The notes: generated from the letters alone by a model not told the origin. DNA of 64,000 bases from Nanobdellota archaeon (GCA_038046385.1 JBBSWH010000004.1:1-64000), one strand, 5' to 3'; shown: positions 35,069 to 57,971, numbered from the stretch's first letter. Translations and numbers: made by a program.

Positions 35069-35272
35069 CACTGGACATCTCTGCCTAAGATATATAAATC
35101 ACTTCTGCCTCTAAAATTAAAAAAGAGGACACACAAAACTGCTAAATAATGATTTTCGGCTTTACCATAAATCAATTATGCAGTTTCGCTTAACATTCTC
35201 TTTTTAAATGAGATTTCCTGTATTAAACACAAGGAAATCTCACGTTAGATGAGCTTTCAAGAGGTAAGTAAA
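35069..35272 (+). promoter_or_regulatory. Nuclease-associated promoter + structured leader cassette, copy 1
   Basis: CACTGGACATC..CCTAAG-A-TATATAAA; stem AAAAAGAGGA..AAAACTGC..GCAGTTTCGCTTAAC..TTCTCTTTTT; second hairpin TGAGATTTCC/GGAAATCTCA. Confidence 0.85.
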
Positions 35273-36355
35273 ATGGTGATAAGGTTAACTGACGAACAAA
35301 AAGAACAAATCAAAAACAAGTTTCAGGAGTATTTAAGTACAAATAAAACTACAAAAAATATTGCAAATGAATTAGGAGTAGAAAAATCTACCGTTGCAAA
35401 ATTTTATTCTAAATTGTTTGGAGAACAATATAAAAGAATGGCAAAATCAAAGTGTTACCAACATAATACCATATTAAGTGATAATCAAGTATTAAAATTG
35501 TTTGAAAGGTACAAGAATGGAACTCCCGTAAAAGAATTAGAAAAAATTTCAGGGGTTGGATATGGTTCTTTATGCCCAAGAATGTTAAGGTTGATTGGAG
35601 AAGAATATCAAAAAGTATCTCTAAAAAGAAAGTATGAGAAAGCAGGAAATTTCTATAGAAAAGTGATAGATTTTGATGTAAGAATTGCGTTTGAAAAGTA
35701 TAAATCAACTTCAGTATCAACGACCGCATTGGCTGATGAGTTAGGTTTAGCAGAAAGTACACTTATTTTCAGGTTTAAAAAATTGTTTGGTAACGACTAG
35801 GATATTCTTGCATTAAAAAGGAGAAATGAAAGAAAGGTTTCAAAAGAAGATTACATAAAATCTTTTGAAGAATACAAAAATTCCAATATCTCGTTAACTG
35901 ACTTAGCAAATAAGCTAAATGTAAGAATTACTTCGCTTCGCACAAGATTTTTGAGGCTATTCGGAGAAGAATATATAGAAATAGCAAAACAAAAATCTGA
36001 TGGGTCTGCGCTAAACCGAAAAGGGGTTAACGCTGAAAATATAGCTTTGGAATATTTGAAAACAAAAGGCCATGTTATAAGTGATGTAAGACATAAGGCA
36101 ATTCTCAAAGGAACCTTAAAAAGGCCTGATTTTGTGATTGATAACACTTTTGTGGAAGTTAAGAATAACTACATAAATCTTAATAAGAAAAGAGTAAAGG
36201 GCTATTTGCAAATTATAGGAGATTACCTAGGGAAAGAAACAAAAGAAGGGAAAATATTGACAAAAGGCATTATAATTTCTTTAGGTGGCTTTTCTCAAGA
36301 AGTCAGGAAGAAAGCAGAAGAAGATGGAATAACTTTGATTGATTTGAAAAAATAG
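35273..36355 (+). pseudogene. 4x HTH-repeat + Mrr-like PD-(D/E)XK nuclease gene interrupted by one in-frame TAG (35798-35800)
   Basis: ORFs 35249-35800 and 35951-36355 share a frame and the gap between them is open. Repeats end LFGEQY, LIGEEY, LFGND*, LFGEEY. C-terminus has RPDFVIDNTFVEVK..KGIIISLGGFS. Confidence 0.8.
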
Positions 36356-36400
36356 AATTCTCACCAAACCTTTAAATAGCCCTATTTATTCCTCATTCTT

Positions 36401-36826
36401 ATGATAGTCGGCTTCGCTTTTACAAAAATAACAGCAGAAAAGAATGAGTCTGCAAAGGGAAAGATAGACATAAACAATAATGTATCCATAAAAGATGTTG
36501 TGGAAGACAATCTATCTCTTGGAAAGGAAAAGCAGACTGCCTTGAAATTCACTTTTGAATTTGTTTCAAAATATGAGCCTAACCTGGGAAAAATAGGAAT
36601 TGAAGGGAATCTTCTTTACATGACCGATGCAAAGAAATCAAAAGAGATTCTTGCATCATGGAAAAAAGACAAAAAAGTCTCGCAGGATATAATGGCAGGC
36701 CTTTTGAACCATGTTCTTACAAAATGCAACATACAGGCATTGATATTAAGCCAGGACATTAACCTGCCTCCGCCAATTCCTTTGCCAAAAGTGCACATGC
36801 AGCAGAAGCAGGAAAGTAAGAATTAA
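36401..36826 (+). CDS. Archaeal hypothetical protein
   Basis: MIVGFAFTKITAEK..DINLPPPIPLP; TTTAAATA upstream. Confidence 0.75.
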   Translation: MIVGFAFTKITAEKNESAKGKIDINNNVSIKDVVEDNLSLGKEKQTALKFTFEFVSKYEPNLGKIGIEGNLLYMTDAKKSKEILASWKKDKKVSQDIMAGLLNHVLTKCNIQALILSQDINLPPPIPLPKVHMQQKQESKN

Positions 36827-36869
36827 ATAAAATTCTAATATTAATTTATCATTATTGGATTTTTGGGAA

Positions 36870-37463
36870 TTATTTTTTATTCTGCAATGATTCTTTATCT
36901 GCTCTTCCGGAATATAAGCTTTCGAGCCTTCCGCTTAAAGTTGATTGCAGATATTTATAAATTTTGTACGGATCATCAATGTATTTTAATTCGTCGTACA
37001 TTGTTCTTGTCTGAATTTGGCTTGGAGTGTACCCTCCGCCTTGTGTGCGCATGCCGCCGGTTGAATACGTCTGTGTTTTGCCGACGTCGATTTTTACAGT
37101 TCCGACAGAAAACATTTTACCAATAATTCCAACATCAACCAACAGGTTTTTTATTTCATTGAAATAAATAGACTTAAAGTCAGTTCCAATCAATCCTGAT
37201 TTTATTAAAATTCTTTTTTGGGTTACGGCATATTCTTTTATCCTGTTTGAAAAAAACTGAAACAATGATAAAATTATGCCTAAAGCAATGACCGCAGCCC
37301 CGTACATCTTAGGAAAAGATGTGGCAGCAATCAAATAAGTCCCAATCGATAAGATTATCAGCAATGAAAATATCAAACCAAAATTAAGAACTTTTCTGTT
37401 TATAATGCCGCGCCAAACTATCTTTTCGCTGGGTTCCAGAACTGCATTAATATCTGCATCCAT
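36870..37463 (-). CDS. Membrane protein with bacterial PH-like (bPH_2) domain
   Basis: Two TMs, then YAVTQKRILIKSGLIG..GTVKI. Confidence 0.75.
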   Translation of the reverse strand: MDADINAVLEPSEKIVWRGIINRKVLNFGLIFSLLIILSIGTYLIAATSFPKMYGAAVIALGIILSLFQFFSNRIKEYAVTQKRILIKSGLIGTDFKSIYFNEIKNLLVDVGIIGKMFSVGTVKIDVGKTQTYSTGGMRTQGGGYTPSQIQTRTMYDELKYIDDPYKIYKYLQSTLSGRLESLYSGRADKESLQNKK

Positions 37464-37553
37464 TTAAACGATAATAAAATAACGCATATATATATATATC
37501 GATTTAAAAATAAATAAAAAAGAAGGAAAAAATAAATTTACGTCCCTGCCAAT

Positions 37554-37611
37554 GCCAACCTTTTGCGAAAAGCTTGGCCAAAAGCGTGGGTTTCGCTACG
37601 CTCAAGCCCAC
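37554..37611. repeat. REP-like double hairpin downstream of ahcY
   Basis: GCCAACCTTTTGCGAAAAGCTTGGC and GTGGGTTTCGCTACGCTCAAGCCCAC. Confidence 0.5.
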
Positions 37612-37614
37612 TAA

Positions 37615-38874
37615 CTACGTCCCTTCCTGCCAGCTTCCCATGTAATGCTTCTGGTCTGCAGTCATCTCGTCAATTATTATTCCCATGGCATGCAGCTGTA
37701 GTTTAGCAATATCGTTATCTATATGTTCAGGAAGCTGTATGACTTTTGGCGGCATCTTTCCTTTGTTCTTCACAGCATATTCGCATGCAAGCGCCTGCCC
37801 GCAGAACGACGTTGCCATTACTTCGCTTGGATGCCCTTCTGCAACAGCAAGATTAACCAAACGCCCTTCTCCGCATACATAAATTCTTTTTAAGTCAAAA
37901 GTATACTCGTCAAGGAAAGGCCTTATATTCCTGAAGTTTGCAATCTTTTTCAATCCAGCGACGTTTATTTCAGCGTCAAAATGTCCGGAATTTGCAAGAA
38001 TTGATCCGTCTTTCATAAGCTCAATATGCTCAATATCTATTACATTTTTGTTTCCTGTAACTGTTATGAAAATGTCGCCGATTTTTGCAGCTTCTTTTAT
38101 CGGCATTACTCTGTAGCCGTCAAGCGCAGCCTGCAGTGCCCTAAACGCATCAATTTCGGTTATAATTATATTAGAACCCATTCCCTGTGCCCTTAGCGCA
38201 ACTCCTTTTCCGCAGCTTCCATAGCCGCAGACAACAACATTTTTTCCGGCAAACAGTATGTTTGTTGCCCTTATGATTCCGTCAATCGTGCTCTGCCCGG
38301 TTCCATAATAATTGTCAAGCAAATGCTTGGTCTTGTTGTCATTGACGGCAATCATCGGATACCTTAATGCGTTATCCTTTTCCATTGCCTTCAATCTTAT
38401 GATGCCGGTTGTTGTTTCCTCGCATCCTGCAATTATGCTGCTTATCAATTCTGGATGGTTTTTGTGAATTTCACTTACTAAGTCGCATCCATCGTCTATT
38501 GTTATGTTTGGCTTAAATTCTATGATTTTATTCAAATACTTGTAATAATCCTCTTTTGTCTCTCCTTTGTATGCCCACACCTTGATTCCTTCTTTTGCAA
38601 GAGCTGCAGCAACATCATCCTGCGTGCTTAATGGGTTGCATCCTGTGATTGCAACATCTGCGCCGCCTGAGATAAGGGTTCTTACAAGAATTCCTGTTTC
38701 TTTTGTAACGTGCAGTGCCATTCCAATTCTTAATCCCTTAAATGGCTGTTCAGAAAGAAACCTTTTCTTTACTTCCATCAAAGCGCTCATTCTTGACTCA
38801 GCCAGTTCAAGGTTTTTCATTCCCTGATCTGCCAGTTTCATATCCTTTACTTCGTAATTTTGATTTGTGTCCAT
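37615..38874 (-). CDS. ahcY: S-adenosylhomocysteine hydrolase
   Basis: GCNPLSTQD, EETTTG, GYGSCGKG, GRLVNL, GHP. Confidence 0.97.
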   Translation of the reverse strand: MDTNQNYEVKDMKLADQGMKNLELAESRMSALMEVKKRFLSEQPFKGLRIGMALHVTKETGILVRTLISGGADVAITGCNPLSTQDDVAAALAKEGIKVWAYKGETKEDYYKYLNKIIEFKPNITIDDGCDLVSEIHKNHPELISSIIAGCEETTTGIIRLKAMEKDNALRYPMIAVNDNKTKHLLDNYYGTGQSTIDGIIRATNILFAGKNVVVCGYGSCGKGVALRAQGMGSNIIITEIDAFRALQAALDGYRVMPIKEAAKIGDIFITVTGNKNVIDIEHIELMKDGSILANSGHFDAEINVAGLKKIANFRNIRPFLDEYTFDLKRIYVCGEGRLVNLAVAEGHPSEVMATSFCGQALACEYAVKNKGKMPPKVIQLPEHIDNDIAKLQLHAMGIIIDEMTADQKHYMGSWQEGT

Positions 38875-39009
38875 TTATATCACCAAATATGGGTAATTTC
38901 GGTATATATTTATATTTTTTTCGATAAATATTGGATAAAATCCGTAAATTATTGAAATAACTGGATAAAATAGCAAAATTTAAATATAAATTAAAAAAAT
39001 ATCTATGCC

Positions 39010-39435
39010 ATGGACGGAAAAGATATGAAAATAATTGAAATCCTGAAGCAGGATTCAAGATTGCCGATAAAAGAGATAAGCAAACGGACCAAGATACGCC
39101 CCAGTACAGTGCACCAGAGGATAAAGAACCTTCTGAAAGACGGCGTGATAGAAAAATTCACGATAAAGGCAAATAACAAAAAGATAGACCAGAATTTCAT
39201 TGTGCTGATGCTCGTAAAGGGGACAACAACAGAATATCTTGACAGCAAGATAATCCATGATGATCATGTCAAGGAGATTTTTGGAATAACGGGAGAGTAT
39301 GACATGCTTTTGAAATTGAAGTTTAAAGATGTTGAAGAATTCAATGACTTTGTTTTGAAATTCAGGAAAGAGAAAAAAGAAATTCAGTCAACAATGACGA
39401 TGATAGTGACTGCTAATTTGAAGGAAGAGGTTTAG
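39010..39435 (+). CDS. Lrp/AsnC family transcriptional regulator
   Basis: DMKIIEILKQDSR..STVHQRIKNL..GVI; ITGEYDMLL. Confidence 0.92.
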   Translation: MDGKDMKIIEILKQDSRLPIKEISKRTKIRPSTVHQRIKNLLKDGVIEKFTIKANNKKIDQNFIVLMLVKGTTTEYLDSKIIHDDHVKEIFGITGEYDMLLKLKFKDVEEFNDFVLKFRKEKKEIQSTMTMIVTANLKEEV

Positions 39436-39440
39436 AAAAG

Positions 39441-39914
39441 CTACAATTCTTTTTTCAGCGCTTCTCTAATATTTTTAATATTATCTTCTGAAATTCTGGC
39501 CAATGCATCTTTTGTTTTTACAAAAAAGCTTGAAGAGTACCTTTTGATTTCGTCAATTGCTTTTGAATCAACTGGCCTGTTGGAATAATACTGCAGATCA
39601 ATCCTTGCAGAAAATGCCTTTTCAATCATGTCGCAATCTTCTTTATCATAAAACAGTTTAAGATGCTCTTTCATAAACGCCAATGAGCAGGAGTGTATTT
39701 CGCATTTTATGCCTATTCTGAGCATCAGGGAATAAAGAGAGTAATAGAAAACATAGTAAGCCATAGTTGCTGTCCAAATCCTGCTGCTTTCAACATCCTG
39801 TAGCGCACTTATTGATTCTTCCGCCATCTTCATGTAAGAATGAGACATGTTGCTGTTTGGCTCTACAAATTCTATTCCGTTTTTCTGCTTTAGGCACCAT
39901 TTAACTGAAACCAT
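39441..39914 (-). CDS. HEPN domain protein
   Basis: AYYVFYYSLYSL, CEIHSC, ARIDLQYY. Confidence 0.8.
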   Translation of the reverse strand: MVSVKWCLKQKNGIEFVEPNSNMSHSYMKMAEESISALQDVESSRIWTATMAYYVFYYSLYSLMLRIGIKCEIHSCSLAFMKEHLKLFYDKEDCDMIEKAFSARIDLQYYSNRPVDSKAIDEIKRYSSSFFVKTKDALARISEDNIKNIREALKKEL

Positions 39915-40476
39915 GGTAATTCCTCCACGCCAGACTTATAAAATCTTCAGTTCCAAAGAGGATTATATGATTTTCCAAAATTTCCCTGCATAAGTTGTTT
40001 TTCTCTTTTAAAAGATTAATCCACTCATTTCTTGAAAAATGCTTTGCGCTTATCTGGAGTCCTAATTCTTTTCCTCCTGCATATTTGCTGTTTTTCCCTC
40101 CTATTATAAATATATCCAAGTCAGAATTGCCTTTTTGAATGTTTTTTGCATAGCTGCCGAAAATGCCAATAATGCCTTCGCCTTCTTTAAAGGCATGCGC
40201 TATCTTTCTTTCTTTGCCCATAAATTCCAGTTTTCTGGCAATCTCTGCTGTGGCAACTATATCTTTGATTTCCGTATTCTCCATATTGAGCCCATAATGC
40301 TTTAATGTCCCTTCTTTTCTCGTCTTTAATACTCCTTTTTGTTCCAATTCTTCCAAGGCCAATGCTATCCCTTTTTGGCTTAGGCTTACTTTGCCTATAA
40401 GGCTTCTTCCGTATACTTCTTTGGCATAATTGCCCAAAAACTGCTTCAAAACCTCAAAATATTTATTGTGTATCAT
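39901..40476 (-). CDS. wHTH + minimal nucleotidyltransferase; start probably 40476
   Basis: [20 protein letters not shown]. Confidence 0.85.
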
Positions 40477-40494
40477 TTTACACAATTGTGTAAA
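40477..40494. promoter_or_regulatory. Perfect 18-bp palindrome (putative operator) between the TATA box and ATG of MNT-HEPN pair 2
   Basis: TTTACACAATTGTGTAAA. Confidence 0.6.
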
Positions 40495-40630
40495 TTATTA
40501 CATATTTAAATCTTTCTGTTTTGAGAAGTGTATTGTTGCTGTAAAAGATTGTATGCAACTGCAATATAGTATTCAAACTGAAGGAAGAGATTTAGAAATG
40601 TTTAAATACCACCTTTTCAAAAGATATAAG

Positions 40631-40873
40631 ATGCTCAAAAGAGGATTTTTGTATTTTGTTATATTTGCGTTAGTTCTGTCATTATCTTCAATTGTTTATG
40701 CTGCCTCTCCGGCAGCACAGCCGCCAAGCCAGCCAGCCGCACCACAGACAGCTTCACAATCATCATGCGCAGGAAGATGCGGAAATTATGATTCAGCCAA
40801 ATCATGCCAGTGTGATTCTGCATGCGCAAATTACGGCGACTGCTGCTCTGACAAGAAAACAGTGTGCGGTTAA
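40631..40873 (+). CDS. Secreted 80-aa protein with a somatomedin-B (SMB)-like domain
   Basis: Signal peptide, Pro/Ala/Gln linker, [36 protein letters not shown] (8-Cys SMB spacing). Confidence 0.8.
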
Positions 40874-40915
40874 AAAAATATTCTTGACTGAGTAAATTTA
40901 ATGTAATTAAAAATC

Positions 40916-41815: not shown

Positions 41816-41854
41816 AGAAATAAGTAATCTGGAATCTTTTTAAAGCTTACGGGA

Positions 41855-41992: not shown

Positions 41993-42038
41993 TTTTACCA
42001 AATTAATCCTTGCAGAGCTACTTTAAAAGATTTTCGAT

Positions 42039-45476: not shown

Positions 45477-45517
45477 TTTATATTCTAAAGAGTAATCATT
45501 TAAAAATATTCTCATCT

Positions 45518-45707
45518 ACCACTGGACATCCTCACCTAAGGTTTATAAAGCAATTCTGCTTCTGAAAACTGAAAAAGAGAACACGCAAAACTGCCAAATT
45601 ATGATTTTTGCTTATAAGCCAAAAATCAATTATACAGTTTCGCTTAACATCCTCTTTTTCCTGAACTCCAAAGTTCCAGAAGTCAGAAACTTTGGAGGTT
45701 GATTAAA
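45518..45707 (+). promoter_or_regulatory. Nuclease-associated promoter + structured leader cassette, copy 2
   Basis: ACCACTGGACATC..CCTAAG-G-TTTATAAA; stem 45571-45660; hairpin CTCCAAAGTT/AACTTTGGAG overlapping the GGAGG RBS. Confidence 0.88.
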
Positions 45708-46868
45708 ATGAATGAAGATAAAATACAAATAACATTGGAAGATTTTCCAGATGATATCTATATTCTTTTAGAAGATAATTTTAGGGCAGATTTCTTCAAA
45801 ACTGCTTGGAAAATAAACAAAAGTTACAGGCACTTGGCTAAAAAGGTTGGAGTTTCCAATCCAGTCATGCTTTCTTGGAGAAGAGGAAGGATTAATTTTA
45901 CCAACCAAGACCAATTTTGCCCTGTTTGGGCTATAAAAGAGATAATAAACTACTCTAAGCATGATTCTGAATGGAAATTTTATTTGGATGAAGTACAAAA
46001 ACACGTAAAATCAATAAGATGCAAGGCAGGCACTTACAAAATCTACAATGTTAAGCTGCCAATATATGATTCAATAGAGCTAAGGGAAATTGTAACACAC
46101 CTTATTTGTGATGGCTCGGCTTTAAATGAAAAGTATAGGACATCTAAATATGCTTCCACCAGTTTAAAAACTGTAAACGAAATAAAGAAAAAATTGTCAA
46201 TATTTGGAGAAACTCCTAATTTAATTATTAGGAAAGAAACCTACACAAATCATTATTTGCCACTTTATGTATTAAATTTTTCCAAAGCTATAACCAAAAT
46301 TTTGACTGCTAAATTCAATATCGACTTTAGAGGGGATAAAGCAAGAATGCCTAAAGAGTTTTTTGTAGGGGAAAGAAAGTTATTAGTTGCAATTGTTAGG
46401 GCATTCTTAATTGATGAAGGATGTATAAGGGACAGAAATATTAACTTTTGTTCTGGGAGTGTGGAACTGCTTGAAGATTTAAAGCAAATTTGCCTTTTGC
46501 TAGACTATAAATGTCAAAATATAAGAAAAAGTGGTGGAACTTACTATCTAAATATTTCTCCAGACTCATTTACCAAAGTTTATGGGGATTTGGATTTGTT
46601 TGGTAAACTTCCTATTGCAGATAAACAGGAAAGATTGGATTTAGGAATAAAAATAATCAATAATTCACCAGATTTTCATAGTCTGGATAATGATTTATTG
46701 TTAAATTTGAAAAGCCCAATTACAACTTTAGAGCTTTCTAAGAGATTACTAATAAACGGAAAAACAATAACTGAAAGATTAAACAAGATGCAAAAATTAG
46801 GGCTTGTTGAAAGAAATGTTAACAGAAACTTAGGAAAAGGCGGTTCTTTTAGCTGGAAGGTTCTTTAG
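45708..46868 (+). CDS. Free-standing HTH + LAGLIDADG (two motifs) + wHTH protein
   Basis: YRHLAKKVGVS HTH; EIVTHLICDGS and AIVRAFLIDEG; C-terminal TTLELSKRL..LNKMQKLGLV; overlaps the topA 3' end. Confidence 0.8.
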   Translation: MNEDKIQITLEDFPDDIYILLEDNFRADFFKTAWKINKSYRHLAKKVGVSNPVMLSWRRGRINFTNQDQFCPVWAIKEIINYSKHDSEWKFYLDEVQKHVKSIRCKAGTYKIYNVKLPIYDSIELREIVTHLICDGSALNEKYRTSKYASTSLKTVNEIKKKLSIFGETPNLIIRKETYTNHYLPLYVLNFSKAITKILTAKFNIDFRGDKARMPKEFFVGERKLLVAIVRAFLIDEGCIRDRNINFCSGSVELLEDLKQICLLLDYKCQNIRKSGGTYYLNISPDSFTKVYGDLDLFGKLPIADKQERLDLGIKIINNSPDFHSLDNDLLLNLKSPITTLELSKRLLINGKTITERLNKMQKLGLVERNVNRNLGKGGSFSWKVL

Positions 46869-49089
46869 CTTCATCTGAGGGTTTATTATTAGTTAATTTC
46901 TCAGTATAACGGCATTTAGGAAATTTATTACAGGCGTAAAACTTTCCGTAAATCGAGCTTCTTAATACAATATCGCCTTCATTGCATTTCGGGCATTTTC
47001 TCTTTATCTCGCCTTTTGCAATCGCTTTTGCTTCTTCTCCTGCTTCACCTGCTACGTGCTTTGTGGAACATTTCGGATTCAAACAGAATTCAAGCGGCTG
47101 CTTGCCTTTCTTTATCGCAAGCACCATTGGATACTTGCAAGTTTCGCATTCTTTCTTAGCAGGTTTTATCAAAGCGTTTTTTGGTATTGAAAAAATAGTC
47201 TTGCAGTCCGGATATTTGTTGCACGCCGCAAAAGCCCCAAACTTTCCGCGGCGCATTGTTATGTTTCCGAGCTTGCATATCGGGCATATCCCGAGAAAAG
47301 ACATTTCATCCTGCGTCTCCTTGTTTGCCTTTGACAGTTCAGTTCCTATCTCCTTCTGGTGCTTCTTAAAATCAATTAATATTTTTGTGATAGCCTCTTT
47401 AGCCTCTTCCAGAACCTGATCTTTTTTCTGCTTGCCTTCCCTTATGCCTTCCATTTCAAGCTCAAAGTGCCTAGTCAGTTCTTCATCTATTATTTTAGGT
47501 GAATATTTCTCAAGGGTTTCTATTGTTGACACTCCAAGCTGTGTGGCTTCTATCGGGGTTCCTTTTACATATCCCCTATTGAATAGTGTATCAACAATTT
47601 CAGAGCGCGTTGCCTTTGTCCCGAGATTTCTTCTTTCAAGCTCTTTTATTATTGAAGCAGGCGTGTATCTTTTTGCGTGCTGTGTTTCCTTCGACAATAA
47701 TTCTATTTTCCCAATATTCACTTTTTGCCCCTGCCTTAAATCTGGAAGCTCTATTTCTTCCAGTTTTACATAAGGCTCATAGAATTTGTGCCACCCTTTT
47801 TCTATTGTTCTTGTGCCTCTTGTTATGAAAATTTCATTGTTGCAGTTTAAGTCTACAGTCATTGTCTCTCTTACTGCATTCTCTGCAAACGTTGCCATGA
47901 ACCTCTTTACAATAATATCATAGATTTTTGCTTCCTTTGCCTCAAGCTCGTTTGGAGCAATTCCAGTCGGATAAAGCGCAGGGTGCGCAGGGTCTGTCTT
48001 TTTGCCGTTGTTTGGCTTGAGGGATTTTTTTGCTGTAAGCAGCTTGACAGATGCAGCATATTTTGCCTGCTTTCCTAAGCCGTCAAATATCTTCTTATAG
48101 CCTATTGACTCCGGCAGCTGCTGGCTTGATGTTCTTGGATAAGAAATGAAACTTGAAGTGTAAAGCTCCTGCGCAATAGAAAGTGTTTCTTTTGGAGATA
48201 TTCCGAAGCATCTGTAAGCCTCAATCTGCAATGATGTTAAATCGAACGGAAACGGAGGCATCTGGTCAAATTTTCTTCTTTCAACCTCGTCAGCATTTGC
48301 TTCTTTCTGGCTTTTTGTTTTGGCAATTGATTTCTCAGCTTCCTTTTTGTCCCAGAATTTGTCCTGCACATGCCAAGCTTCCATCTTCTGCTGCTTAAAA
48401 TTTGCGTCCATCCTTATCTGCCAAAACGGCTTTGGAACAAATGCCTTGATTTCCTTTTCCCTGTCTACAATTATCTTCAGCGAGGGTCCTTGAACCCTGC
48501 CGGTTGACATTATCTTGAATGATCCTGATGATTTTATTGATGCTGTAAGCGCCCTTGAATAGTTAATTCCATTATACCAGTCCAGAAAATGGCGCGTTTC
48601 TCCGGCCTCTGCCTGACCCCAGTCAAGGTGCTTGCTTTTTTTTGAATATGCTTCCCTTAGCTCATCTTTTGTCAATGTTGAGAACTTCATCCTGTATGCA
48701 TCTTTCTTGCCGCAAGCGTACCTTATGACATTTAATCCGATTACTTCCCCTTCCTGGTCATAATCTGTTGCAACTGTGTATTCGTTTGCGCCTTTTGCGA
48801 GCTTCTTTATTGTATTAAGATATTTTTTTGTAAACTCTGATCCCCTGACATTTTCAGAAACCGGCTTCCATTCTATGTCAAACATAGGATATGTCCATCC
48901 TTTCTTTTGCCTTTCACACAGCCCATAAAGATGGCCTACAGCGCACGTAACAACAATATCCTTCTTGCCATGGGTAATCTTATAGTAAGCAACGCCCTGA
49001 TTAACCTCTTTTATCGCCTTTCCATCAGTAAGTGATTCTGCTATTTTCTGAGCAGCAGCCGGCTTTTCTGTGATGATTAACTCATACAT
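46849..49089 (-). CDS. topA: DNA topoisomerase I (type IA) with Zn ribbons
   Basis: LIITEKP, ATDYDQEGE, GRVQ, ISYPRT. Confidence 0.96.
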   Translation of the reverse strand: MYELIITEKPAAAQKIAESLTDGKAIKEVNQGVAYYKITHGKKDIVVTCAVGHLYGLCERQKKGWTYPMFDIEWKPVSENVRGSEFTKKYLNTIKKLAKGANEYTVATDYDQEGEVIGLNVIRYACGKKDAYRMKFSTLTKDELREAYSKKSKHLDWGQAEAGETRHFLDWYNGINYSRALTASIKSSGSFKIMSTGRVQGPSLKIIVDREKEIKAFVPKPFWQIRMDANFKQQKMEAWHVQDKFWDKKEAEKSIAKTKSQKEANADEVERRKFDQMPPFPFDLTSLQIEAYRCFGISPKETLSIAQELYTSSFISYPRTSSQQLPESIGYKKIFDGLGKQAKYAASVKLLTAKKSLKPNNGKKTDPAHPALYPTGIAPNELEAKEAKIYDIIVKRFMATFAENAVRETMTVDLNCNNEIFITRGTRTIEKGWHKFYEPYVKLEEIELPDLRQGQKVNIGKIELLSKETQHAKRYTPASIIKELERRNLGTKATRSEIVDTLFNRGYVKGTPIEATQLGVSTIETLEKYSPKIIDEELTRHFELEMEGIREGKQKKDQVLEEAKEAITKILIDFKKHQKEIGTELSKANKETQDEMSFLGICPICKLGNITMRRGKFGAFAACNKYPDCKTIFSIPKNALIKPAKKECETCKYPMVLAIKKGKQPLEFCLNPKCSTKHVAGEAGEEAKAIAKGEIKRKCPKCNEGDIVLRSSIYGKFYACNKFPKCRYTEKLTNNKPSDEAKEPSS

Positions 49090-50232: not shown

Positions 50233-50286
50233 TTTATCCAATAAAATCAGAAAACAATTTAAATAGCGGAATTTCTGTGATAAATC

Positions 50287-51009: not shown

Positions 51010-51013
51010 AAAA

Positions 51014-51116
51014 CGCCCCTCCGGGGAATTGAACCCCGATCTTAAGCTGTTTTCAAGCGAAATTGCTGGATTTTCGCTGCCGCAAGCTCATGTGCTATCC
51101 GTTATACCAGAGGGAC
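51014..51116 (-). tRNA. tRNA-Arg(GCG) with a 31-nt intron at 37/38
   Basis: GTCCCTC/GAGGGGC acceptor, TGAGC-TTGCGG[intron]A-GCTTA, T-arm CGGGG-TTCAATT-CCCCG. Confidence 0.88.
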
Positions 51117-51225
51117 ACTATTAATATATAGGTAGAAACTGCTTTTTTATAAAGCTTCTCAGATATCAATTTCACCACTCACCTATAGTAACAAAATAGA
51201 AAGATTTATAAATAGGGAAAAAAGG

Positions 51226-52137
51226 ATGTTTGTTATGGCACTTGATGATTTATTAAACAACCTGTCAAATCCCTCTACAAAACAAGTTCTTGATGGGTTG
51301 CAAGAAGCAGTAGTCATTACAGGGGTAGATGGATCAATACTTTACGCCAATAGTCAATTTTCAAAAATTGTACAGGCTTATTATGGAAAAGAAAATCCAC
51401 ATGGCAGAAATTTATTTGGGGATTATAACTTTGAAGCAAAAGATCAAAAAGCCGCTCTCCTTGAAGAATGTGTAAGCAGTGGACTGGCAAAACAATCTAG
51501 AAGAGTTGTATATGTAAGGGATGATAAAAGTGAGCATTATTACAATATAAGGATGGAGCCGTTAAAAGGTGCTAATGAAAAAGTAGAAGGTGTCCAAGTA
51601 GGGTTTGTAGATGTAACTAACGAGGTTTTAGAGGCTATAAAAGATGAATTAACTGGCGCATTTACGAAAAATCATTATTTAAGGCAATTATTTCCTACAG
51701 AAAGCGCTAGGGCTATTAGAGCTAAAAGGAGCGGTTCTGAGAAAGAGTCTTATTTAGGAGTCATTGTAGGGGATTTGCAGGATTTCAAAAAAGTTAATGA
51801 TACATTGGGCCATTCTATTGGTGATGATATACTAAAAAGAACAGCAAGTTTAATGATGGAAAGTGTAAGGCCAACAGATTATGTAATAAGGTTTGGAGGA
51901 GATGAATTTTGCGTCTTGCTTCCAAATACGGATCAAGCAGCCGCAAATCAGGTTATGGCAAGAATAAATTCTAATATTAAAAAATATAATAGGGGAATAA
52001 GAAATCCACTCATGCAAATCAAAATGAATTTTGGAGTGCTATCAGATAATGATAATTATGAGGGTATTTTGGAAAAAGCTGATGCTTTTATGTATGCCAA
52101 TAAAAGAGGAGCAAAAGAAAAGGGTACTCCTCCATAA
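51226..52137 (+). CDS. PAS + GGDEF diguanylate-cyclase-like protein
   Basis: PAS (DGSILYANSQF); DELTG, DLQDFKKVNDTLGHSIGD, RPTD I-site, RFGGDEF, ADAFMYANK. Confidence 0.9.
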   Translation: MFVMALDDLLNNLSNPSTKQVLDGLQEAVVITGVDGSILYANSQFSKIVQAYYGKENPHGRNLFGDYNFEAKDQKAALLEECVSSGLAKQSRRVVYVRDDKSEHYYNIRMEPLKGANEKVEGVQVGFVDVTNEVLEAIKDELTGAFTKNHYLRQLFPTESARAIRAKRSGSEKESYLGVIVGDLQDFKKVNDTLGHSIGDDILKRTASLMMESVRPTDYVIRFGGDEFCVLLPNTDQAAANQVMARINSNIKKYNRGIRNPLMQIKMNFGVLSDNDNYEGILEKADAFMYANKRGAKEKGTPP

Positions 52138-52145
52138 ACATATTA

Positions 52146-53705
52146 TTACCCCTCCCAGTCTCTCAAGCTAATCTGGCCTTTGCGTTTATTTTCAGGAATT
52201 AAGGCAACATCCTGTCCAAGCTGTTTTTTTATATTTAATGCTGTCTTCTCTCCAATAATCTGAGTCAAGGTAGACAAATCTACAGCTTTCAAATCTTTTA
52301 TATCTTTTAATTTGTTCCTAAAAAGCAATCTCGCCCTTACTCTTCCGATATTCTCCAGTTTTATCAGGGGCAATAATTCTTCCTTGACTCCATACTTTAA
52401 TCTTAATCTTAGTTTTATGATTTCTTTTATCAAAGACTGATAATGGAGCATCTTGCACATCTCTTCTGTCGAGTACAAAAGCCAGTCTGCTATGTCCACT
52501 TTTGCCCGCAACTCCCCTGGCCTCGTGTTATACTCTTCAAGCAAAAATTCTTCATCCTGCTCGTCAATCCACTGATTAAACATCGAAGCAGTCTTGACAG
52601 AATTCAAAAAATCCTCATATTCCGGTTCGTACATTGAGGGCTCCTGCTCAAGGATATAGTCGCCCATTTCGAGCAAAAATTCCTGTATCTTGTCATATTC
52701 TCTTATACCGACTTTAAGCATAGGCCTTATCTCAAGCGTGTGTGATATAGTCTGCAAAAACGAAAACGCATTTATCTTTTTGTCAGACGCATTTCTCATG
52801 CACGTGATTATAAAATGCGCTGTCAAAGGATCAAGATACAATTCTGCAATTCTTTTTCCTATTAAAGTTGCTTTCAGTTTTTCATCATCTATTTCATTTG
52901 CGCTCGTGAATTCATCGCCGGAACGCATAATGAACTCCCACTCTTCCAGCATGTCAATCACTTTTGAAATTGTTGAATGCAGTTTTCTCAAATCCTTAAA
53001 CTGGTGCGCATAGAATGTCTTGTCAAAAAAGCCAAACAGCTGTTTTTTTGTCGTGATAAAATTTGCAGCGATTAATGAAAGCACATATGTCCTTAAAACC
53101 GGCTCAACAGCAAGCTTCGAGTATATATCTTCCGGGGTTCCATTAAGATATTTTTCTTCTATCTTTTCCTTCTCGCCCTCAGTCATTGCAATGACAATTG
53201 ACTGGCCTTCGCTGTCATAATTCGGCCTTCCAGCTCTGCCAGACATCTGCATGTAATCCAGTACTGGAATCCATGATAATCCGTGAACAGTATACCTTCT
53301 CAAATCCTTTATTATTGCCCGGAAAGCTGGCAAATCAACCCCGTAAGCAAGCGTTGGGGTGCAGCAGATTATTTTTATTGTGCTGTTCCTGAAATTTTCT
53401 TCTATTATCTCTTTTTGTTTGTGTGTCAGGCCGGCATGATGGAATGCAATCCCTTTTCTCATGCAGAACGATAGTTTCTCGCACTGTTTTGTCGGCTTCG
53501 GAAGCGCATTTAATGCATCTTCCGCAATCAGATTAAGAGTTTCATTTGTTGATTTTATTTTTTTTGATATTTCTTCTGCTGTCTTCTCTGCCGATTTTTT
53601 TGTGTTTACAAAAACAATGGCCTGCTTGCCTATCTTTAAAGTGTCAAGCGCCAGATTAATAGCTCCGCTTTCAAACTCGTCGTCAATCTTAACTTGCTTA
53701 GGCAT
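52146..53705 (-). CDS. Hel308/Ski2-like helicase, C-terminal part only (no Walker A/DEAH domain)
   Basis: VFVNTKK, IAFHHAGL, TPTLAYGVDLPA, QMSGRAGRP, IGRVRAR HhH; starts just before RecA2. Confidence 0.85.
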   Translation of the reverse strand: MPKQVKIDDEFESGAINLALDTLKIGKQAIVFVNTKKSAEKTAEEISKKIKSTNETLNLIAEDALNALPKPTKQCEKLSFCMRKGIAFHHAGLTHKQKEIIEENFRNSTIKIICCTPTLAYGVDLPAFRAIIKDLRRYTVHGLSWIPVLDYMQMSGRAGRPNYDSEGQSIVIAMTEGEKEKIEEKYLNGTPEDIYSKLAVEPVLRTYVLSLIAANFITTKKQLFGFFDKTFYAHQFKDLRKLHSTISKVIDMLEEWEFIMRSGDEFTSANEIDDEKLKATLIGKRIAELYLDPLTAHFIITCMRNASDKKINAFSFLQTISHTLEIRPMLKVGIREYDKIQEFLLEMGDYILEQEPSMYEPEYEDFLNSVKTASMFNQWIDEQDEEFLLEEYNTRPGELRAKVDIADWLLYSTEEMCKMLHYQSLIKEIIKLRLRLKYGVKEELLPLIKLENIGRVRARLLFRNKLKDIKDLKAVDLSTLTQIIGEKTALNIKKQLGQDVALIPENKRKGQISLRDWEG

Positions 53706-53743
53706 TATAAAAAAAGAAGAATCAAAGTTTATAAGATTTTTGA

Positions 53744-55633
53744 TTAAACTACGTTTACATTGATCATCTGCTCTGTCTTGTCAATGCCGTCGCTTACAAT
53801 TACTTTAACCTGTTTTGTGCCTCTTGTTGTGAATATTCTCTGATGCTTCTGCGTGCCTTTGTATTTGTCAAAAAAGCCAAAGTCCCAAGTATAATCCAGC
53901 TGGTCATTGTCATCGTCAACTGCCACAACAGACATCGATGCTGGCTTGTTCAAGCGTGCAGTTACGCTTATTGTTGCATTGGCAATTCTTGGCGCCCTAT
54001 TTTTATCTCTTAATTCTAGCTTCATGATTTGTTTTGAATCAAGCGAGCCGTCTGTTGCGCTAAAAACAAGATTATAAACCTGTTTCTGTCCTTTGCTTAA
54101 AACAGAGTATGCTGGTTTCCATATGAATGCGTTGTCTTTTATATTGACTCCTTGCGGAGGGTTTTCCAAATAATATTTTACATTGTCCCCATCTGGGTCT
54201 TTTGCATTCAGAAGCATTGCAATCTCGTCATTTTCGTATGCAACAATATCCGATAATTTATCTAAAGCCGGAGCCCTGTTTGAATTTGCAACATTCACAG
54301 GAACTTTGATTGATGCCTGTTCTGTTCCGTCGCTTGCAGTTATAGTAATTTCATGGTCTCCTGAATCATCATAAGTTGGCCTGAATGCGGCAGTTGAAAT
54401 GTATCCGGAAAATTGCAGTGTTACTTTGTCGCCGTCTAAATCATAAGCTCTTGGTTCAAGTGTAACAAATTCATCTTCTTTTGCAATTATTGTGTCCATC
54501 GGCTCTATCACAGGTGCCCTGTTCTTGTCAACAACAGTTATTATGACATTCTGCACCACTTGGTTTTTGTTTGAAACTGCAATAAACTGCGGATAGAAGC
54601 TCTTGCCGAGTATCCTGAATTTTCCAAGAAGCTTGTTGAAGAAGCTGTTCTTCTGTATTGTATCATAATCTGGTGTCCATGTAAATACATTGCCGTCAAG
54701 CAATGACCCTTCCGGAAGGTTTTTTGCTTCAAAATTTATTTTGTCTCCGTCAGGATCAGATACCTTGAAAGTTATTTTTATCTCATCACCCTCATTAACT
54801 ACCGGGTTGCTTAGTTCAGCAAATTCTGCCGGCCTGTCAATATCATTGACAGTTACTACCACTGTCTTGCTGCCGGAAAATCCCTTTCCTTCAGCATGCA
54901 CTTTTATATCATAAATGCCGGAATCGTCATAAGTAGTTTGCCACTCATTGTTATTGTTGAATGGCTTTGAGATTGTATACGCCAGCCCATATTTTTCAAA
55001 ATCTGGAATTTCTATCTTTACAAGTTCATTTTCATTTGCAGCCACATCCTTGATTTCATCAAGAATCCCCTGCACATCTACATTTTTGACTTCAACTGGC
55101 CATTCTTTTGATGTTTCGAGTTTTCCGTCTGAAACAACTGATTTTATCCTGTGCGTTCCTTCGTCATTGTACGTTGAATCGTAAGTATATTCATTTCCTT
55201 CTGCAACTTTCTTGTTGTCAAAATACCACCTGTAAGTTAATTCGTCTTTGTTTGCATCTGATGCAATAACACTAAAATCTACTGACTGTGATTCGTTTAT
55301 TGCTATTGAATCCTGCCTTGGAAGAAATGAGTCAACAGAAGGCGCTGCTTCCTTTCTTTTTACAACAATCAGAATATCTTTAGAAGTGCTTATCTGGCCG
55401 TCAGAAACAGTCACCATTGAATTATATGTGCCTGCATCTCCATAAGTTGTCTGCCATTCTCCATTTTCATTTAAGGGGGATGAATACTCAATAGATATAT
55501 AATCAGAATCAGGATCATCAGCTTTCGGAGCGATTGCTATCTTCTCCGTCTCATCTATCACGAACTTTGTCGCAGAATAGGCAAGAGGAATTACTAAGAA
55601 TACAATCAAAAGTAAAGCTAGCTTCTTTTTCAT
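53744..55633 (-). CDS. Secreted PKD/cadherin-like (Ig) repeat surface protein
   Basis: Signal peptide; repeated DPDGD, WQTTYxDxG, VSDG, NRAP. Confidence 0.85.
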   Translation of the reverse strand: MKKKLALLLIVFLVIPLAYSATKFVIDETEKIAIAPKADDPDSDYISIEYSSPLNENGEWQTTYGDAGTYNSMVTVSDGQISTSKDILIVVKRKEAAPSVDSFLPRQDSIAINESQSVDFSVIASDANKDELTYRWYFDNKKVAEGNEYTYDSTYNDEGTHRIKSVVSDGKLETSKEWPVEVKNVDVQGILDEIKDVAANENELVKIEIPDFEKYGLAYTISKPFNNNNEWQTTYDDSGIYDIKVHAEGKGFSGSKTVVVTVNDIDRPAEFAELSNPVVNEGDEIKITFKVSDPDGDKINFEAKNLPEGSLLDGNVFTWTPDYDTIQKNSFFNKLLGKFRILGKSFYPQFIAVSNKNQVVQNVIITVVDKNRAPVIEPMDTIIAKEDEFVTLEPRAYDLDGDKVTLQFSGYISTAAFRPTYDDSGDHEITITASDGTEQASIKVPVNVANSNRAPALDKLSDIVAYENDEIAMLLNAKDPDGDNVKYYLENPPQGVNIKDNAFIWKPAYSVLSKGQKQVYNLVFSATDGSLDSKQIMKLELRDKNRAPRIANATISVTARLNKPASMSVVAVDDDNDQLDYTWDFGFFDKYKGTQKHQRIFTTRGTKQVKVIVSDGIDKTEQMINVNVV

Positions 55634-55685
55634 TTATCCCCCAAATAAAAGAAAAGACGGCAATAATTTGCCGTATTTTGTAAAA

Positions 55686-56774
55686 TTATTTCTGCACAAT
55701 CTCTGTTATGACAGGTGCCCTGTTCACGTTTGCCACTTTCACGCTTATTTCGTGCTCTGTGGTGTCCTGACCGTCGGTTGCGCTTACAACAATAGTGTAA
55801 GTTCCAGCGCTGTCATAGCCGGTTTCCCAGGTAAATACATTGTCTTCCTGTGTAAACCTTGACTCGCTTATTGAGTATTCTAAGTTATCGTTGTCATCAT
55901 CTGTTGCAAGAGCAGTTATTACTATAGTGTCTGTCTCGCTTGCGCTTATGTCAGCAATGCCTTCAAGCACAGGCTTCCTGTTTACATTCTTTACTTCAAC
56001 AGACCATATCTTGCTTGCTAATGATATTCCGTCAGTCACATCAACTTTGACAGTGTGTGTTCCTGCGTCATCATAGGTTGTCTGGTAAGTATATTGTGTT
56101 TCTGTGCCCACAGCATATCCGTCAATCTTCCATTCATATGAAAGCGTGTCGCTGTTAAGGTCTGATGACTCTGCGCTGAAATCCAATGACTGTGTTTCGT
56201 CAGCCACAAGCCCGCTCTCGATTGGGTTTGAAGAGTCTATTGTTGGTGCTTCCTCTTTCTTGTTAACTATGATTAAAACATCTCTTGATGTTGTTGATTC
56301 ACCGTCTGATACTGTAACAGTTACTGTGTACTCTCCGGCATCTCCGTATGTTGTCTGCCATTCTCCGCTTTCGGTTAATGGTGATGTGAATGTGAATGCA
56401 AGCTTGCTGTCCTTGTCTGGGTCCTCTGCCTTTGGCACAAGATTGACAAGTTCTGTTTCTTCAACTAGTATTACAACTGCCTTTTCCTTTGGCATCTCTA
56501 CTGGAAGTGCTTCGCTTGTTTCTTCAACTGGAATTTCTTCAGCAGTTTCTTCAGCTACTGATTCTTCAACAGGCTTTGTTTCTTCTGGAACAACTTCTGT
56601 TTCAGTTACTTCTGTTTCTTCAGAGGTATCTGTTGTTTCCTGAGAGGTCTCTTTATCAGTATCTTCCTTGACAGCGTTACCTGTAGTGCCTGAAAATGTC
56701 TGGTAAACCTCGCAGCTGCTCAATAGAAACATAGAAACTATCAATAAAACAACAAGACCTTTGTTAAAAACCAT
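55686..56774 (-). CDS. PKD/cadherin-like repeat lipoprotein (paralog of its neighbour)
   Basis: LSSC lipobox, acidic linker, SPLTESGEWQTTYGDAG. Confidence 0.85.
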   Translation of the reverse strand: MVFNKGLVVLLIVSMFLLSSCEVYQTFSGTTGNAVKEDTDKETSQETTDTSEETEVTETEVVPEETKPVEESVAEETAEEIPVEETSEALPVEMPKEKAVVILVEETELVNLVPKAEDPDKDSKLAFTFTSPLTESGEWQTTYGDAGEYTVTVTVSDGESTTSRDVLIIVNKKEEAPTIDSSNPIESGLVADETQSLDFSAESSDLNSDTLSYEWKIDGYAVGTETQYTYQTTYDDAGTHTVKVDVTDGISLASKIWSVEVKNVNRKPVLEGIADISASETDTIVITALATDDDNDNLEYSISESRFTQEDNVFTWETGYDSAGTYTIVVSATDGQDTTEHEISVKVANVNRAPVITEIVQK

Positions 56775-56993
56775 TATTTACCCCTCCGCATATTTTTCAT
56801 TTAAGTTAAATCTGAAAGTGTTGTTATTTTAGAATACTAACTTGTATTTAAACTTTGTGGTAGTTAAAATAGATTTTGGTGATTTTTGTCGAATGGAGAT
56901 TCTTTTTTCAAAGAATTATTTAATAGTGATTATAGGAGTTATAAGATAATGGATTCTAAAAAGCCGGAGCACTATATATAGTATGTGATTTTG

Positions 56994-57182
56994 ACCACTG
57001 GACATCTCCGCCTAAGATATATAAAGGAGATTTACTTATAAAACTGAAAAAGAGAACACGCAAAACTGCTAAATTAAGTCTTTTGGTCTTTGACGCAAAA
57101 GCCTATTACGCAGTTTCGCTTCAAATTCTCTTTTTACTTAAATCCAAAGTTCCAAGAGTCAGAAACTTTGGAGGTGTCTAAT
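56994..57182 (+). promoter_or_regulatory. Nuclease-associated promoter + structured leader cassette, copy 3
   Basis: ACCACTGGACATC..CCTAAG-A-TATATAAA; stem 57047-57135; hairpin TCCAAAGTT/AACTTTGGA overlapping the GGAGGTG RBS. Confidence 0.88.
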
Positions 57183-57971
57183 ATGAAAGCGTTAAGTCAG
57201 GAGGAAATTGAGCAGATTTGTGGATTGTATAAAGAACATGGTAGTGTTAGGGCTGTAATAAAAAGAATGCCTGTGAGTAATGGGTCAGCACACAAATATC
57301 TAACTTTAAAACACTTAATCAGAAAACAAAATATCGTCAGGGAATTAAAAACCCATGATGAGAGATTAATTGGGGTTTATGTTGGTCTTTGGATGGGTGA
57401 TGGAACTCAGTACAAAGATGGGCATAGCTACACTATCAAAATATGCACAAATAGCGATGATGTAAACCTAAATAAATTTGTCAAAGATCTCATAATCCTA
57501 GTTTTTAATAAGAATACTTCATTGTTTAAGGAAAGGCACAGGAAAAGCGCTTATATAAAATTCAGCTCTAGGTTTATTTTTGAATTCATTCATGATTATG
57601 TTGTTTATGATGAAAAGAAGAAAACATATACTGTAGGGCTAAGGAAAAGGGCTAATGCATATCCAAAAGAATTTCGTGAAGGATGCTTGCTGGGTTTAGC
57701 ATTAAGTGATGGATATCTTAAAAATAATTTTGTTTTTACTGTTTCATCTGCCAGATTGGCTAGAAATATGTATGATTTATTGGCCGGATTTAGGTACAAT
57801 CCCTGTTCAAGCTTAGATAGGAGAGAAAAATACCACAACAACATCATGTATTCAATAAAGCTTACTAAGCCAGATAGCATGGCTTTGAATGTCTTTTTAG
57901 ACAAAGTCATTAGAAGTTTAGGATATACTTATTCTTTTAAGGAATTGAAATATGGGCCCGGTGAGATTTGA
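57183..57971 (+). CDS. Free-standing HTH + LAGLIDADG (two motifs) protein
   Basis: N-terminal HTH-like segment; VYVGLWMGDGT and GCLLGLALSDG; RBS GGAGGTG before ATG 57183; stop codon lies inside tRNA-Ile. Confidence 0.82.
   Translation: MKALSQEEIEQICGLYKEHGSVRAVIKRMPVSNGSAHKYLTLKHLIRKQNIVRELKTHDERLIGVYVGLWMGDGTQYKDGHSYTIKICTNSDDVNLNKFVKDLIILVFNKNTSLFKERHRKSAYIKFSSRFIFEFIHDYVVYDEKKKTYTVGLRKRANAYPKEFREGCLLGLALSDGYLKNNFVFTVSSARLARNMYDLLAGFRYNPCSSLDRREKYHNNIMYSIKLTKPDSMALNVFLDKVIRSLGYTYSFKELKYGPGEI

Follow-up and report, generated by a model that had tools for sequence, protein, structure and literature searches.

One promoter and hairpin leader at the head of putative free-standing homing-endonuclease genes of unrelated folds in DPANN archaea

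Why should one and the same non-coding sequence be kept in front of nuclease genes of dissimilar kinds? The question is raised by a 64,000-nt stretch of DNA from a Nanobdellota archaeon (GCA_038046385.1 JBBSWH010000004.1:1-64000), here termed the window, to which all plain coordinates refer and in which a cassette composed of a promoter and a structured leader recurs three times between positions 35,069 and 57,971, each time at the head of a gene coding for a putative helix-turn-helix (HTH) and nuclease protein. Comparison of the window with the rest of its source genome (G000; 1.28 Mb in 19 contigs, 85% complete) and with the genomes of relatives points, with high confidence, to the cassette as the common front end of free-standing homing-endonuclease genes in one genus of Woesearchaeales-type DPANN archaea. 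With equally high confidence, each unit, extending from the upstream box of the promoter to the stop codon of the nuclease gene, appears to be an insertion beside a conserved host gene.

The cassette and its nuclease cargo

The preliminary description of the window had proposed a recurrent non-coding module with four parts, namely an upstream box, a TATA box, a long rod-like hairpin and a second hairpin, and all four are found in all three window copies. The window contains the box followed by N4-CCTAAG three times and no more (35069, 45520 and 56996), where chance would give 0.07 and none of 100 shuffled sequences reaches three occurrences; the first of these starts is the one originally given, whereas the other two had been placed two bases early, at 45518 and 56994. 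The rod arms are likewise found three times each, against an expectation of 0.00. Over the approximately 190 nt that separate the box from the start codon, 76% of the columns are shared in the alignment of the three copies, and their likeness is bounded by the box at its start and by the ATG at its end.

All elements of the cassette lie on the plus strand. In copy 1 the box is doubled (35054-35079, with a degenerate box at 35054 and an exact one at 35069-35079) and is followed by a CCTAAG resembling a transcription factor B recognition element (BRE) at 35084-35089 and by a TATA box at 35091-35098. The corresponding box, CCTAAG and TATA box are located at 45520-45530, 45535-45540 and 45542-45549 in copy 2 (45520-45549 overall) and at 56996-57006, 57011-57016 and 57018-57025 in copy 3 (56996-57025), the TATA box starting 22 nt past the box start in the window copies. 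The rod, of about 90 nt, covers positions 35118-35207 in copy 1, 45570-45661 in copy 2 and 57045-57137 in copy 3, where it is matched by the sense-strand covariance model R1 with 97.3, 102.3 and 100.2 bits and by the minus-strand model R2 with 96.8, 103.8 and 98.5 bits, respectively. Its predicted folds reach -20.5, -22.3 and -26.3 kcal/mol (z = -5.5, -6.0 and -4.8), and none of 200 shuffles folds as well. The second hairpin is found at 45666-45697 in copy 2, its 3' arm pairing the GGAGG at 45694-45698, and at 57143-57173 in copy 3, where it pairs the GGAGG at 57170-57174; the covering of the ribosome-binding site (RBS) that had been claimed for these two copies is reproduced by folding. The second hairpin of copy 1 (35209-35242) is of a variant type and leaves the GAGGT at 35261-35265 uncovered. 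A second leader type can in fact be recognized in copy 1 (35209-35260) and at loci L071, L104, L105, L109, L111 and L112, in which a different hairpin 2 is followed by a conserved motif of about 12 nt before the Shine-Dalgarno sequence (SD); in several copies this type accompanies PD-(D/E)XK or other non-standard cargo.

The three genes that follow the cassette, also on the plus strand, had been described as fusions of HTH domains with different nuclease folds, and the domain calls hold in part. The copy 1 gene (35273-36355; GC 30%) codes for four HTH repeats and a C-terminal PD-(D/E)XK/Mrr-like region, the copy 2 gene (45708-46868; GC 31%) for a LAGLIDADG protein with a C-terminal winged HTH, and the copy 3 gene (57183-57971; GC 33.5%) for an N-terminal HTH and a two-motif LAGLIDADG domain. 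The four HTH repeats of copy 1 and the HTH_24 domain of copy 2, which scores above its Pfam cut-off, stand, and so does the LAGLIDADG assignment of copy 3 by alignment, its protein aligning with LAGLIDADG_3-positive relatives with both LAGLIDADG motifs present (alignment A6). The Pfam nuclease matches of copy 1 (Mrr_cat, 18.8 bits vs a cut-off of 21) and copy 2 (LAGLIDADG_3, 19.3 bits vs 22.5), on the other hand, are weak and fall below threshold, and the copy 3 protein has no Pfam match. The copy 1 gene carries an in-frame TAG at 35798-35800, between HTH repeats three and four, which may denote a recent pseudogene or read-through; because the fourth HTH repeat is located past this stop, the two halves of the reading frame are one broken gene.

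The genome search with a covariance model that had been proposed to follow up the three copies retrieved a family found across the genus, with non-random genes downstream. Model R1, built from five copies (alignment A2), detects the rod in 32 of the 36 genus genomes sampled, in four of 24 from other families of the order and in 18 of 150 further genomes spread evenly across the order (one of them, G174, unpublished), amounting to some 100 copies in the sampled genus genomes and to a patchy distribution across the order. The source genome harbors six rod copies, three in the window and one each on C5, C9 and C6, the outer stem of the C6 copy being fully compensated, together with deletion relics of the rod in the leaders of three more LAGLIDADG genes. 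Ninety-seven copies were aligned (A4 and A8); one true copy (G020:C65:15880-15970) is omitted from these alignments and included in the count of 98. An open reading frame (ORF) of at least 80 amino acids follows the rod in 91 of these 98 copies and starts 38-52 nt past it in 77 of the 91. Of the seven copies lacking such an ORF, three are cut by contig ends, one is a solo rod beside a tRNA, one precedes a C-terminal relic and two head genes with stops or a lost start. Pfam assigns LAGLIDADG_3 to 56 of the 91 downstream ORFs (E ≤0.001), LAGLIDADG_2 to five and HNH_repeat to three, and weak matches to Mrr_cat, DUF559 and Phage_endo_I indicate PD-(D/E)XK cargo; a regular-expression tally of LAGLIDADG motifs (61 of 91) missed clear variants and was not used as a count. 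To judge from these matches, the cargo is non-random and consists of homing-endonuclease-type genes of several folds. This is congruent with the earlier notion of selfish units in which one conserved non-coding module is combined with exchangeable nucleases, and further copies do not head random genes.

The non-coding part had also been portrayed as more conserved than the proteins, and this is borne out in the whole family. In 3620 of the 4095 copy pairs (88%) the downstream proteins give no BLASTP match, and the rod core of the same pairs still averages 83% identity. Concerted evolution within a genome was considered as the source of this conservation and discarded, the rod cores of copies with unrelated proteins being 0.846 identical within genomes vs 0.832 between genomes. 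Since identity is nearly equal within and between genomes and the proteins are unrelated, gene conversion and recent spread are disfavoured as its cause and the leader, to judge from these values, is kept by selection.

The rod itself shows covariation. In the sense-strand alignment of 97 copies, 92.5% of the cells are paired and compensatory changes are seen in 18 of 31 pairs, a result that none of 500 shuffles reaches, and slid controls pair in 38-55% of the cells. A box with at most two mismatches precedes 90 of the 96 copies that have at least 60 nt of upstream sequence, and in 75 it is exact. At gathering thresholds, Rfam 15 reports nothing in the window other than three tRNAs, and its best hits for copies 1 and 2 in E-value mode are miRNA and snoRNA models of at most 21 bits vs gathering thresholds of 45-100 (E ≥0.14). 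With no Rfam match, HEARO and the intron families included, the motif lies outside described families, and the rod is a predicted new, covariation-supported hairpin motif absent from Rfam. Its internal loop (CUAAA/UAYG) had been likened to a tetraloop receptor, which in the 11-nt form has a conserved CCUAAG/UAUGG loop and a GNRA partner. This likeness is lost in the larger alignment, where the loop is a variable 2x2 Y-A/A-Y loop (columns 26/132: CC 53, CU 14, UU 14 and UC 9; columns 27/131: AA 96), and the apical loops of the window copies are not of GNRA type. K-turn, C/D-box and H/ACA identities were likewise discarded by eye, there being no tandem G·A pairs, conserved C/D boxes or ACA box. 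For the variable apical parts, the genome offers matches in other rods alone, apart from chance similarities of 13-19 nt at best (E ≥0.025).

Some rods and records depart from this general picture. The C9 rod (G000:C9:17538-17721, L005) contains two nested insertions sharing a direct repeat of about 20 nt, and the same repeat ends the truncated rod of another species (L108, G028:C2); a tiny insertion element may target rods. Exact matches to the rod pattern carry the record titles Woesearchaeota, Nanoarchaeota or Nanoarchaeia. True rod copies, matched by R1, are also present on three contigs of a bin titled Aminicenantes bacterium and on one titled Micrarchaeota (L229, L246, L247 and L276), and many other records with the rod pattern are titled 'uncultured Methanosarcinales'; these three titles are probably wrong, or the bins mixed. 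Among seven other loci tested, the three that are titled as bacteria and have single pattern matches give no R1 match. A viral origin was also considered and dropped, since none of the five IMG/VR contigs bearing a 19-nt rod pattern matches R1.

Insertion sites in relatives

The comparison with relatives for empty sites that had been suggested for these loci finds them at all three window positions, and orthologues occupy the same site in two to three species. Copy 1 is inserted past the stop codon of an ATP-dependent DNA ligase gene and ahead of the promoter of the gene that follows, the insert comprising everything between the doubled box and its own stop codon. Both flanking genes are seen in 22 relatives, and in 12 of these the spacer at this point measures 45-66 nt; no rod is present there in any of 29 ligase loci. 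The copy 2 gene overlaps with its 3' end the 3' end of a convergent topoisomerase I gene (46849-49089, minus strand). Among 26 scorable loci this site is empty in 23, occupied in two, once by an orthologue with rod (78% identity) and once by an orthologue with box and no leader (47% identity), and marked in one by a relic composed of the last ~45 codons only; in one further genome the gene is split across a contig break. Copy 3 is placed between a PKD-domain gene and two tRNA genes, and the 3' end of its gene overlaps the minus-strand tRNA at 57953-58041. The tRNA lies 173-266 nt from the PKD-domain gene, that is, with the site empty, in at least nine of 29 relatives; one relative carries an orthologue that retains the box, with a leader of 23 nt, and another presents two rods and a relic. 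Elsewhere, rod cassettes directly follow MCM in three species.

Because of these empty sites, rod-less orthologues and relics, and of the low GC content of the window nuclease genes (30-33% vs 39-42% in flanking genes), the units are best interpreted as mobile insertions, and the sites are in keeping with the cycle in which homing-endonuclease genes invade, decay and are lost. Neither intron nor intein surrounds any of the three window genes and the reading frames of the host are left intact, as had been noted from the outset. A nuclease-type domain, an own promoter, the lack of intron or intein, and presence or absence at fixed sites with decay products are found together here, as in free-standing homing endonucleases.

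Several observations on the neighboring genes are worth recording. The copy 1 site is a hot spot, with unrelated inserts of 269-1214 nt in 10 of the 22 relatives (L119, L122, L123, L125, L126, L131, L132, L136, L137 and L144) that contain ORFs of 104-304 amino acids and neither box nor rod. The tRNAs of the window, identified by Rfam at 51014-51116, 57953-58041 and 58093-58181 on the minus strand, are 89-103 nt long; ARAGORN finds two of them, with the anticodon unnamed, and all three are probably intron-bearing archaeal tRNAs. Finally, many species have MCM matches broken at around residues 327 and 409, inside reading frames 1060-1250 amino acids long (for example at G063:C128, G005:C3, G020:C21 and G029:C10), and the ligase of one species (G032:C77) lies within an open frame of 751 amino acids, making inteins in replication genes of the same genus likely.

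Promoter class, leader and strand of action

A scan of the source genome for promoters, defined as a box with at most one mismatch followed by a TATA-like octamer, yields 27 box promoters, in 23 of which the TATA-like element lies exactly 22 nt from the box start. According to Pfam, the genes they head code for MCM, a class II-type ribonucleotide reductase with ATP-cone, Hef (helicase and ERCC4 domains) and a Cas4/Dna2-like nuclease, as well as for an Xer-type integrase, an NgoPII restriction enzyme, Bro-N proteins and at least eight LAGLIDADG proteins. In the genus, the box is found upstream of MCM at the same distance in 23 of 30 loci, and two of the seven loci without it have no upstream sequence. 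From its conservation at MCM and its replication and repair targets, the box is best seen as a promoter element of the host, in use throughout the genus for replication and repair genes and shared by the nuclease genes rather than specific to the cassette. The promoter had been presented earlier as part of a dedicated system, a view that is not sustained given that the box also heads replication and repair genes genome- and genus-wide. The box class looks like a replication and repair regulon governed by a putative factor.

Box promoters of the source genome (with a box of 10 nt) also occur at G000:C6:146828(-), C11:83059(-), C6:64865, C6:85585 and C1:127, and several are doubled with offsets of 7 or 15 nt. 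Five of them are clustered 6-10 kb from an origin-like region, before small genes of Bro-N and AbrB type (C6:125936-130283). This region (G000:C6:135400-135880), upstream of orc1/cdc6, comprises a long A/T-only stretch flanked by a motif that resembles archaeal origin recognition boxes (ORB) and ends in a G-run. An identification of the box with the ORB was rejected, the region upstream of orc1/cdc6 carrying this different ORB-like motif and no box.

For the leader behind this promoter, it seems reasonable to postulate a brake on expression, made of a 5'-terminal rod ending in U5 and of a hairpin that sequesters the SD, with the rod acting also on transcripts that run in the opposite direction; on the comparative evidence we consider the chances of this interpretation to be evenly balanced. 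Its two-step working can be put forward with moderate confidence. The promoter would be borrowed from the host, with box, BRE-like element and TATA box at the fixed spacing of replication and repair genes, and, because the same promoter elements are used by those genes, the nucleases would be transcribed along with DNA-metabolism genes. Six box-promoter genes are leaderless, with their ATG at box+52/53, and on this account the transcription start site (TSS) is placed at the first bases of the rod, in agreement with the earlier remark that the rod begins near the expected TSS. Transcription would start there, so that the mRNA would open with a hairpin of 90 nt that has U5 at the end of its 3' arm. 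Runs of oligo-U are an archaeal termination signal, and oligo-U alone suffices. Because of this, part of the transcripts might stop at U5, and the paired 5' end might shape stability. The second hairpin would then pair the SD and limit translation, rod and second hairpin constituting a two-step brake on a potentially toxic nuclease. Since the complementary strand preserves the hairpins better, the rod probably also acts on transcripts that arrive from the other direction, as a terminator or insulator working both ways at the 5' edge of the insert.

Several features are consistent with such a brake. The rod combines a hairpin with a U-run: its fold z-scores range from -4.8 to -6.0 in the window, and 76 of 97 copies have a T-run of at least five in the 3' arm (85 of 97 a run of at least four). 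Standard arms of hairpin 2 are found in 72 of 91 copies and an SD-like motif in 71 of 91, the latter being paired in the minimum free energy (MFE) fold in 60 of the 71. A predicted fold that sequesters the RBS as in phage T4 is present in copies 2 and 3 and in most SD-bearing copies.

Two kinds of observation weigh against the brake. The first concerns its parts, which are not always present or in place: in copies 1 and 6 the second hairpin lies off the SD, the orthologues of copies 2 and 3 in two relatives keep the box and are leaderless or have a 23-nt leader, making the rod dispensable, and at least four other LAGLIDADG genes of the source genome use the box without rod. The second is the strand on which the hairpins are best preserved. 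The minus-strand model R2 (alignment A7) has 94.2% of its cells paired over 33 pairs and a covariation score of 0.190 vs 0.143 for the sense model, although the alignment of each strand had been fitted to the model of that strand and the copies share ancestry, so that counts do not represent independent events. Pair-keeping single-sided changes number 103 on the minus strand vs 18 on the plus strand. In the sense reading, the two most covarying pairs pass through a C·A intermediate in 36 and 18 copies and through U·G in two and two, and a near-invariant A·C mismatch (87 of 97 copies) reads as G·U on the minus strand; at A4 column pair 13/150, 93 of 97 copies form a standard pair on the minus strand vs 59 of 97 on the plus strand. 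The minus strand also folds better in 84 of 84 rods (-34.9 vs -26.2 kcal/mol), and hairpin 2 is more stable there in 58 of 72 copies. Because the A·C and C·A states of the sense strand become wobble pairs on the opposite one, the usual comparative rule favours selection of the rod hairpin on the antisense strand, contrary to the strand assumed in the preliminary description.

The same asymmetry is what would be seen if the rod, and perhaps hairpin 2, were functional on the opposite strand only, either as body or terminator of a cis-antisense RNA or as a stop for antisense or convergent transcription, the sense hairpin being a by-product. This alternative is less probable than the brake but a serious rival. 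Nearly every base between box and ATG is conserved, the SD-ATG spacer included, as would be expected of overlapping signals on both strands, and copies 2 and 3 do face convergent host genes (topoisomerase I and tRNAs, respectively). However, a search for an antisense promoter in 90 copies, from -160 to +400 around the ATG, finds minus-strand TATA-like octamers without positional peak (at most 11 per 10-nt bin, in the hairpin-2 loop), and the hairpin-2 loops of four source-genome copies are not A/T-only. Only 22 of 95 copies have a further A-run ahead of the rod, from which a U-run would result after the minus-strand hairpin. Moreover, the start of the rod at the sense TSS and the position of hairpin 2 on the SD would both be coincidences, and the strand counts, coming from self-fitted alignments of related copies, are not independent. 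The sense brake is accordingly kept as the preferred explanation, with a rod that probably arrests transcription from the far side as well. A bolder variant, in which the shared leader is a sense/antisense switch and the minus-strand rod RNA of each copy would silence the identical leaders of all copies in a manner dependent on copy number, seems to us unlikely; if true, it would amount to a genome-wide brake on selfish nucleases in DPANN archaea that tightens with copy number, and would explain why one non-coding sequence is kept before unrelated nucleases.

It may also be asked whether the rod works as DNA, with a bottom-strand hairpin or cruciform serving recombination or mobility of the cassette. 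The tolerance of G·T-type wobbles on one strand only, the better fold of the bottom strand with DNA parameters (-21.5 vs -17.3 kcal/mol for the top strand), the nested insertions of the C9 rod, the box promoter of the Xer-type integrase and the apparent shuffling of apical modules among copies (the C6 apex is identical over 24 nt to part of the C9 copy) would all suit this role. Yet the borders of the copy 1 insert lie outside the rod, the box and TATA about 65 nt upstream having come with the insert, and the copies are dispersed, with their own promoters and without arrays. Insertion by conserved genes, empty sites and relics fit homing through double-strand breaks with no need of a recombination site, and the link of the second hairpin to the SD would be left unexplained, all of which makes a DNA role very unlikely.

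Least credible of all, and highly improbable in our judgement, is the idea that the rod gives rise to a discrete RNA serving the nucleases as a partner, a guide or an inhibitor akin to an antitoxin, within an 'RNA + nuclease' system for selfish spread or defence: the order of promoter, structured RNA with U-run and nuclease gene does resemble the type III toxin-antitoxin layout, and the RNA is far better conserved than the proteins, but the cargo folds are unrelated (LAGLIDADG, PD-(D/E)XK and an HNH-associated repeat, with the 88% of protein pairs lacking BLASTP similarity), for which reason one RNA is unlikely to bind all nucleases specifically, the apical parts have no targets at second sites, orthologous nucleases persist without rod at the same sites, and neither a PADLOC defence match nor a HEARO or other Rfam match is obtained. 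The PADLOC-DB 2.0 search covered the six copies of the source genome with seven proteins, the copy 1 product being entered in two halves, and returned nothing but one weak 'homing endonuclease' match (E 0.00079). The guide or defence role raised in the preliminary description is accordingly not upheld, and a guide-RNA nuclease of OMEGA or HEARO type was discarded on the same grounds, the proteins being LAGLIDADG or PD-(D/E)XK.

Implications and known systems

Free-standing homing endonucleases are well studied in phages and hardly in archaea, whose LAGLIDADG enzymes are familiar chiefly from introns and inteins, and some 100 promoter-driven free-standing copies in one DPANN genus, with occupied, empty and decayed sites, would document the homing cycle as it runs in nature among uncultivated archaea. 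The rod motif marks homing-endonuclease genes and can be used to find them, and the box shared with MCM, ribonucleotide reductase and Hef provides a first handle on transcription regulation in Woesearchaeales. In a similar vein, the strand asymmetry makes it testable whether antisense transcription controls archaeal selfish nucleases. A full-text literature search gave no description of the cassette and linked Woesearchaeota with LAGLIDADG through rRNA group I introns only; for homing endonucleases and promoters in DPANN archaea it led to work on group II introns, and a search with the box sequence had primers of unrelated fields among the matches listed.

Antisense RNA control of mobile or toxic genes is known from the RNA-OUT/RNA-IN pair of IS10 and from type I antitoxins. 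As in IS10, a stable imperfect hairpin is predicted to overlap the start of an mRNA that codes for a mobile-element enzyme, and shared sequence could let the copies act on each other, with the comparative signal here favouring the antisense strand. Unlike in IS10, the genes are those of homing endonucleases and not of transposons, and the antisense RNA is only a candidate. DNA hairpins, for their part, are used in recombination as integron attC sites and other hairpin substrates of tyrosine recombinases. Rods and attC sites are both imperfect inverted repeats (60-140 nt) in which the outer parts are conserved, the middle varies and one strand pairs better, and both go with varied cargo; the difference is that rods are dispersed and form no arrays, the repeat stands at the 5' side behind a promoter, and the insert borders lie outside the repeat.

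Among homing endonucleases, the closest enzymes are those of archaeal introns and inteins. Group I introns with LAGLIDADG genes have been described in Woesearchaeota rRNA genes in the part of the source relied on here (PMC6125680), and the window genes share with these the enzyme superfamily and the archaeal group; in contrast to intron and intein LAGLIDADG genes as presented there, they are intergenic, have their own promoter, show no detected intron family and interrupt no reading frame. The closest control is that of phage T4, whose homing endonuclease genes I-TevI, segB and mobE are, according to passages of the source on this subject (PMC2988022), controlled by RBS-sequestering hairpins, upstream or internal terminators and dedicated promoters. 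In line with those passages, a selfish nuclease gene would be held down in both cases by a hairpin that pairs its SD and by a hairpin with U-run in the transcript, and free-standing genes lie between conserved genes of DNA metabolism (PMC2988022). As far as the same passages go, each T4 gene has its own hairpin, whereas here one 190-nt cassette of about 83% identity heads some 100 genes of unrelated folds. The present case, in addition, concerns archaea and a promoter with box, BRE and TATA, and the long 5'-terminal rod, to which a function is ascribed here by deduction, finds no counterpart in what those passages report for T4 (PMC2988022). Free-standing homing-endonuclease genes with control at the RNA level are already known, and what is new is an archaeal set that shares one control cassette across unrelated folds, together with its plug-in to a host replication and repair promoter class and the unexplained signature of the antisense strand.

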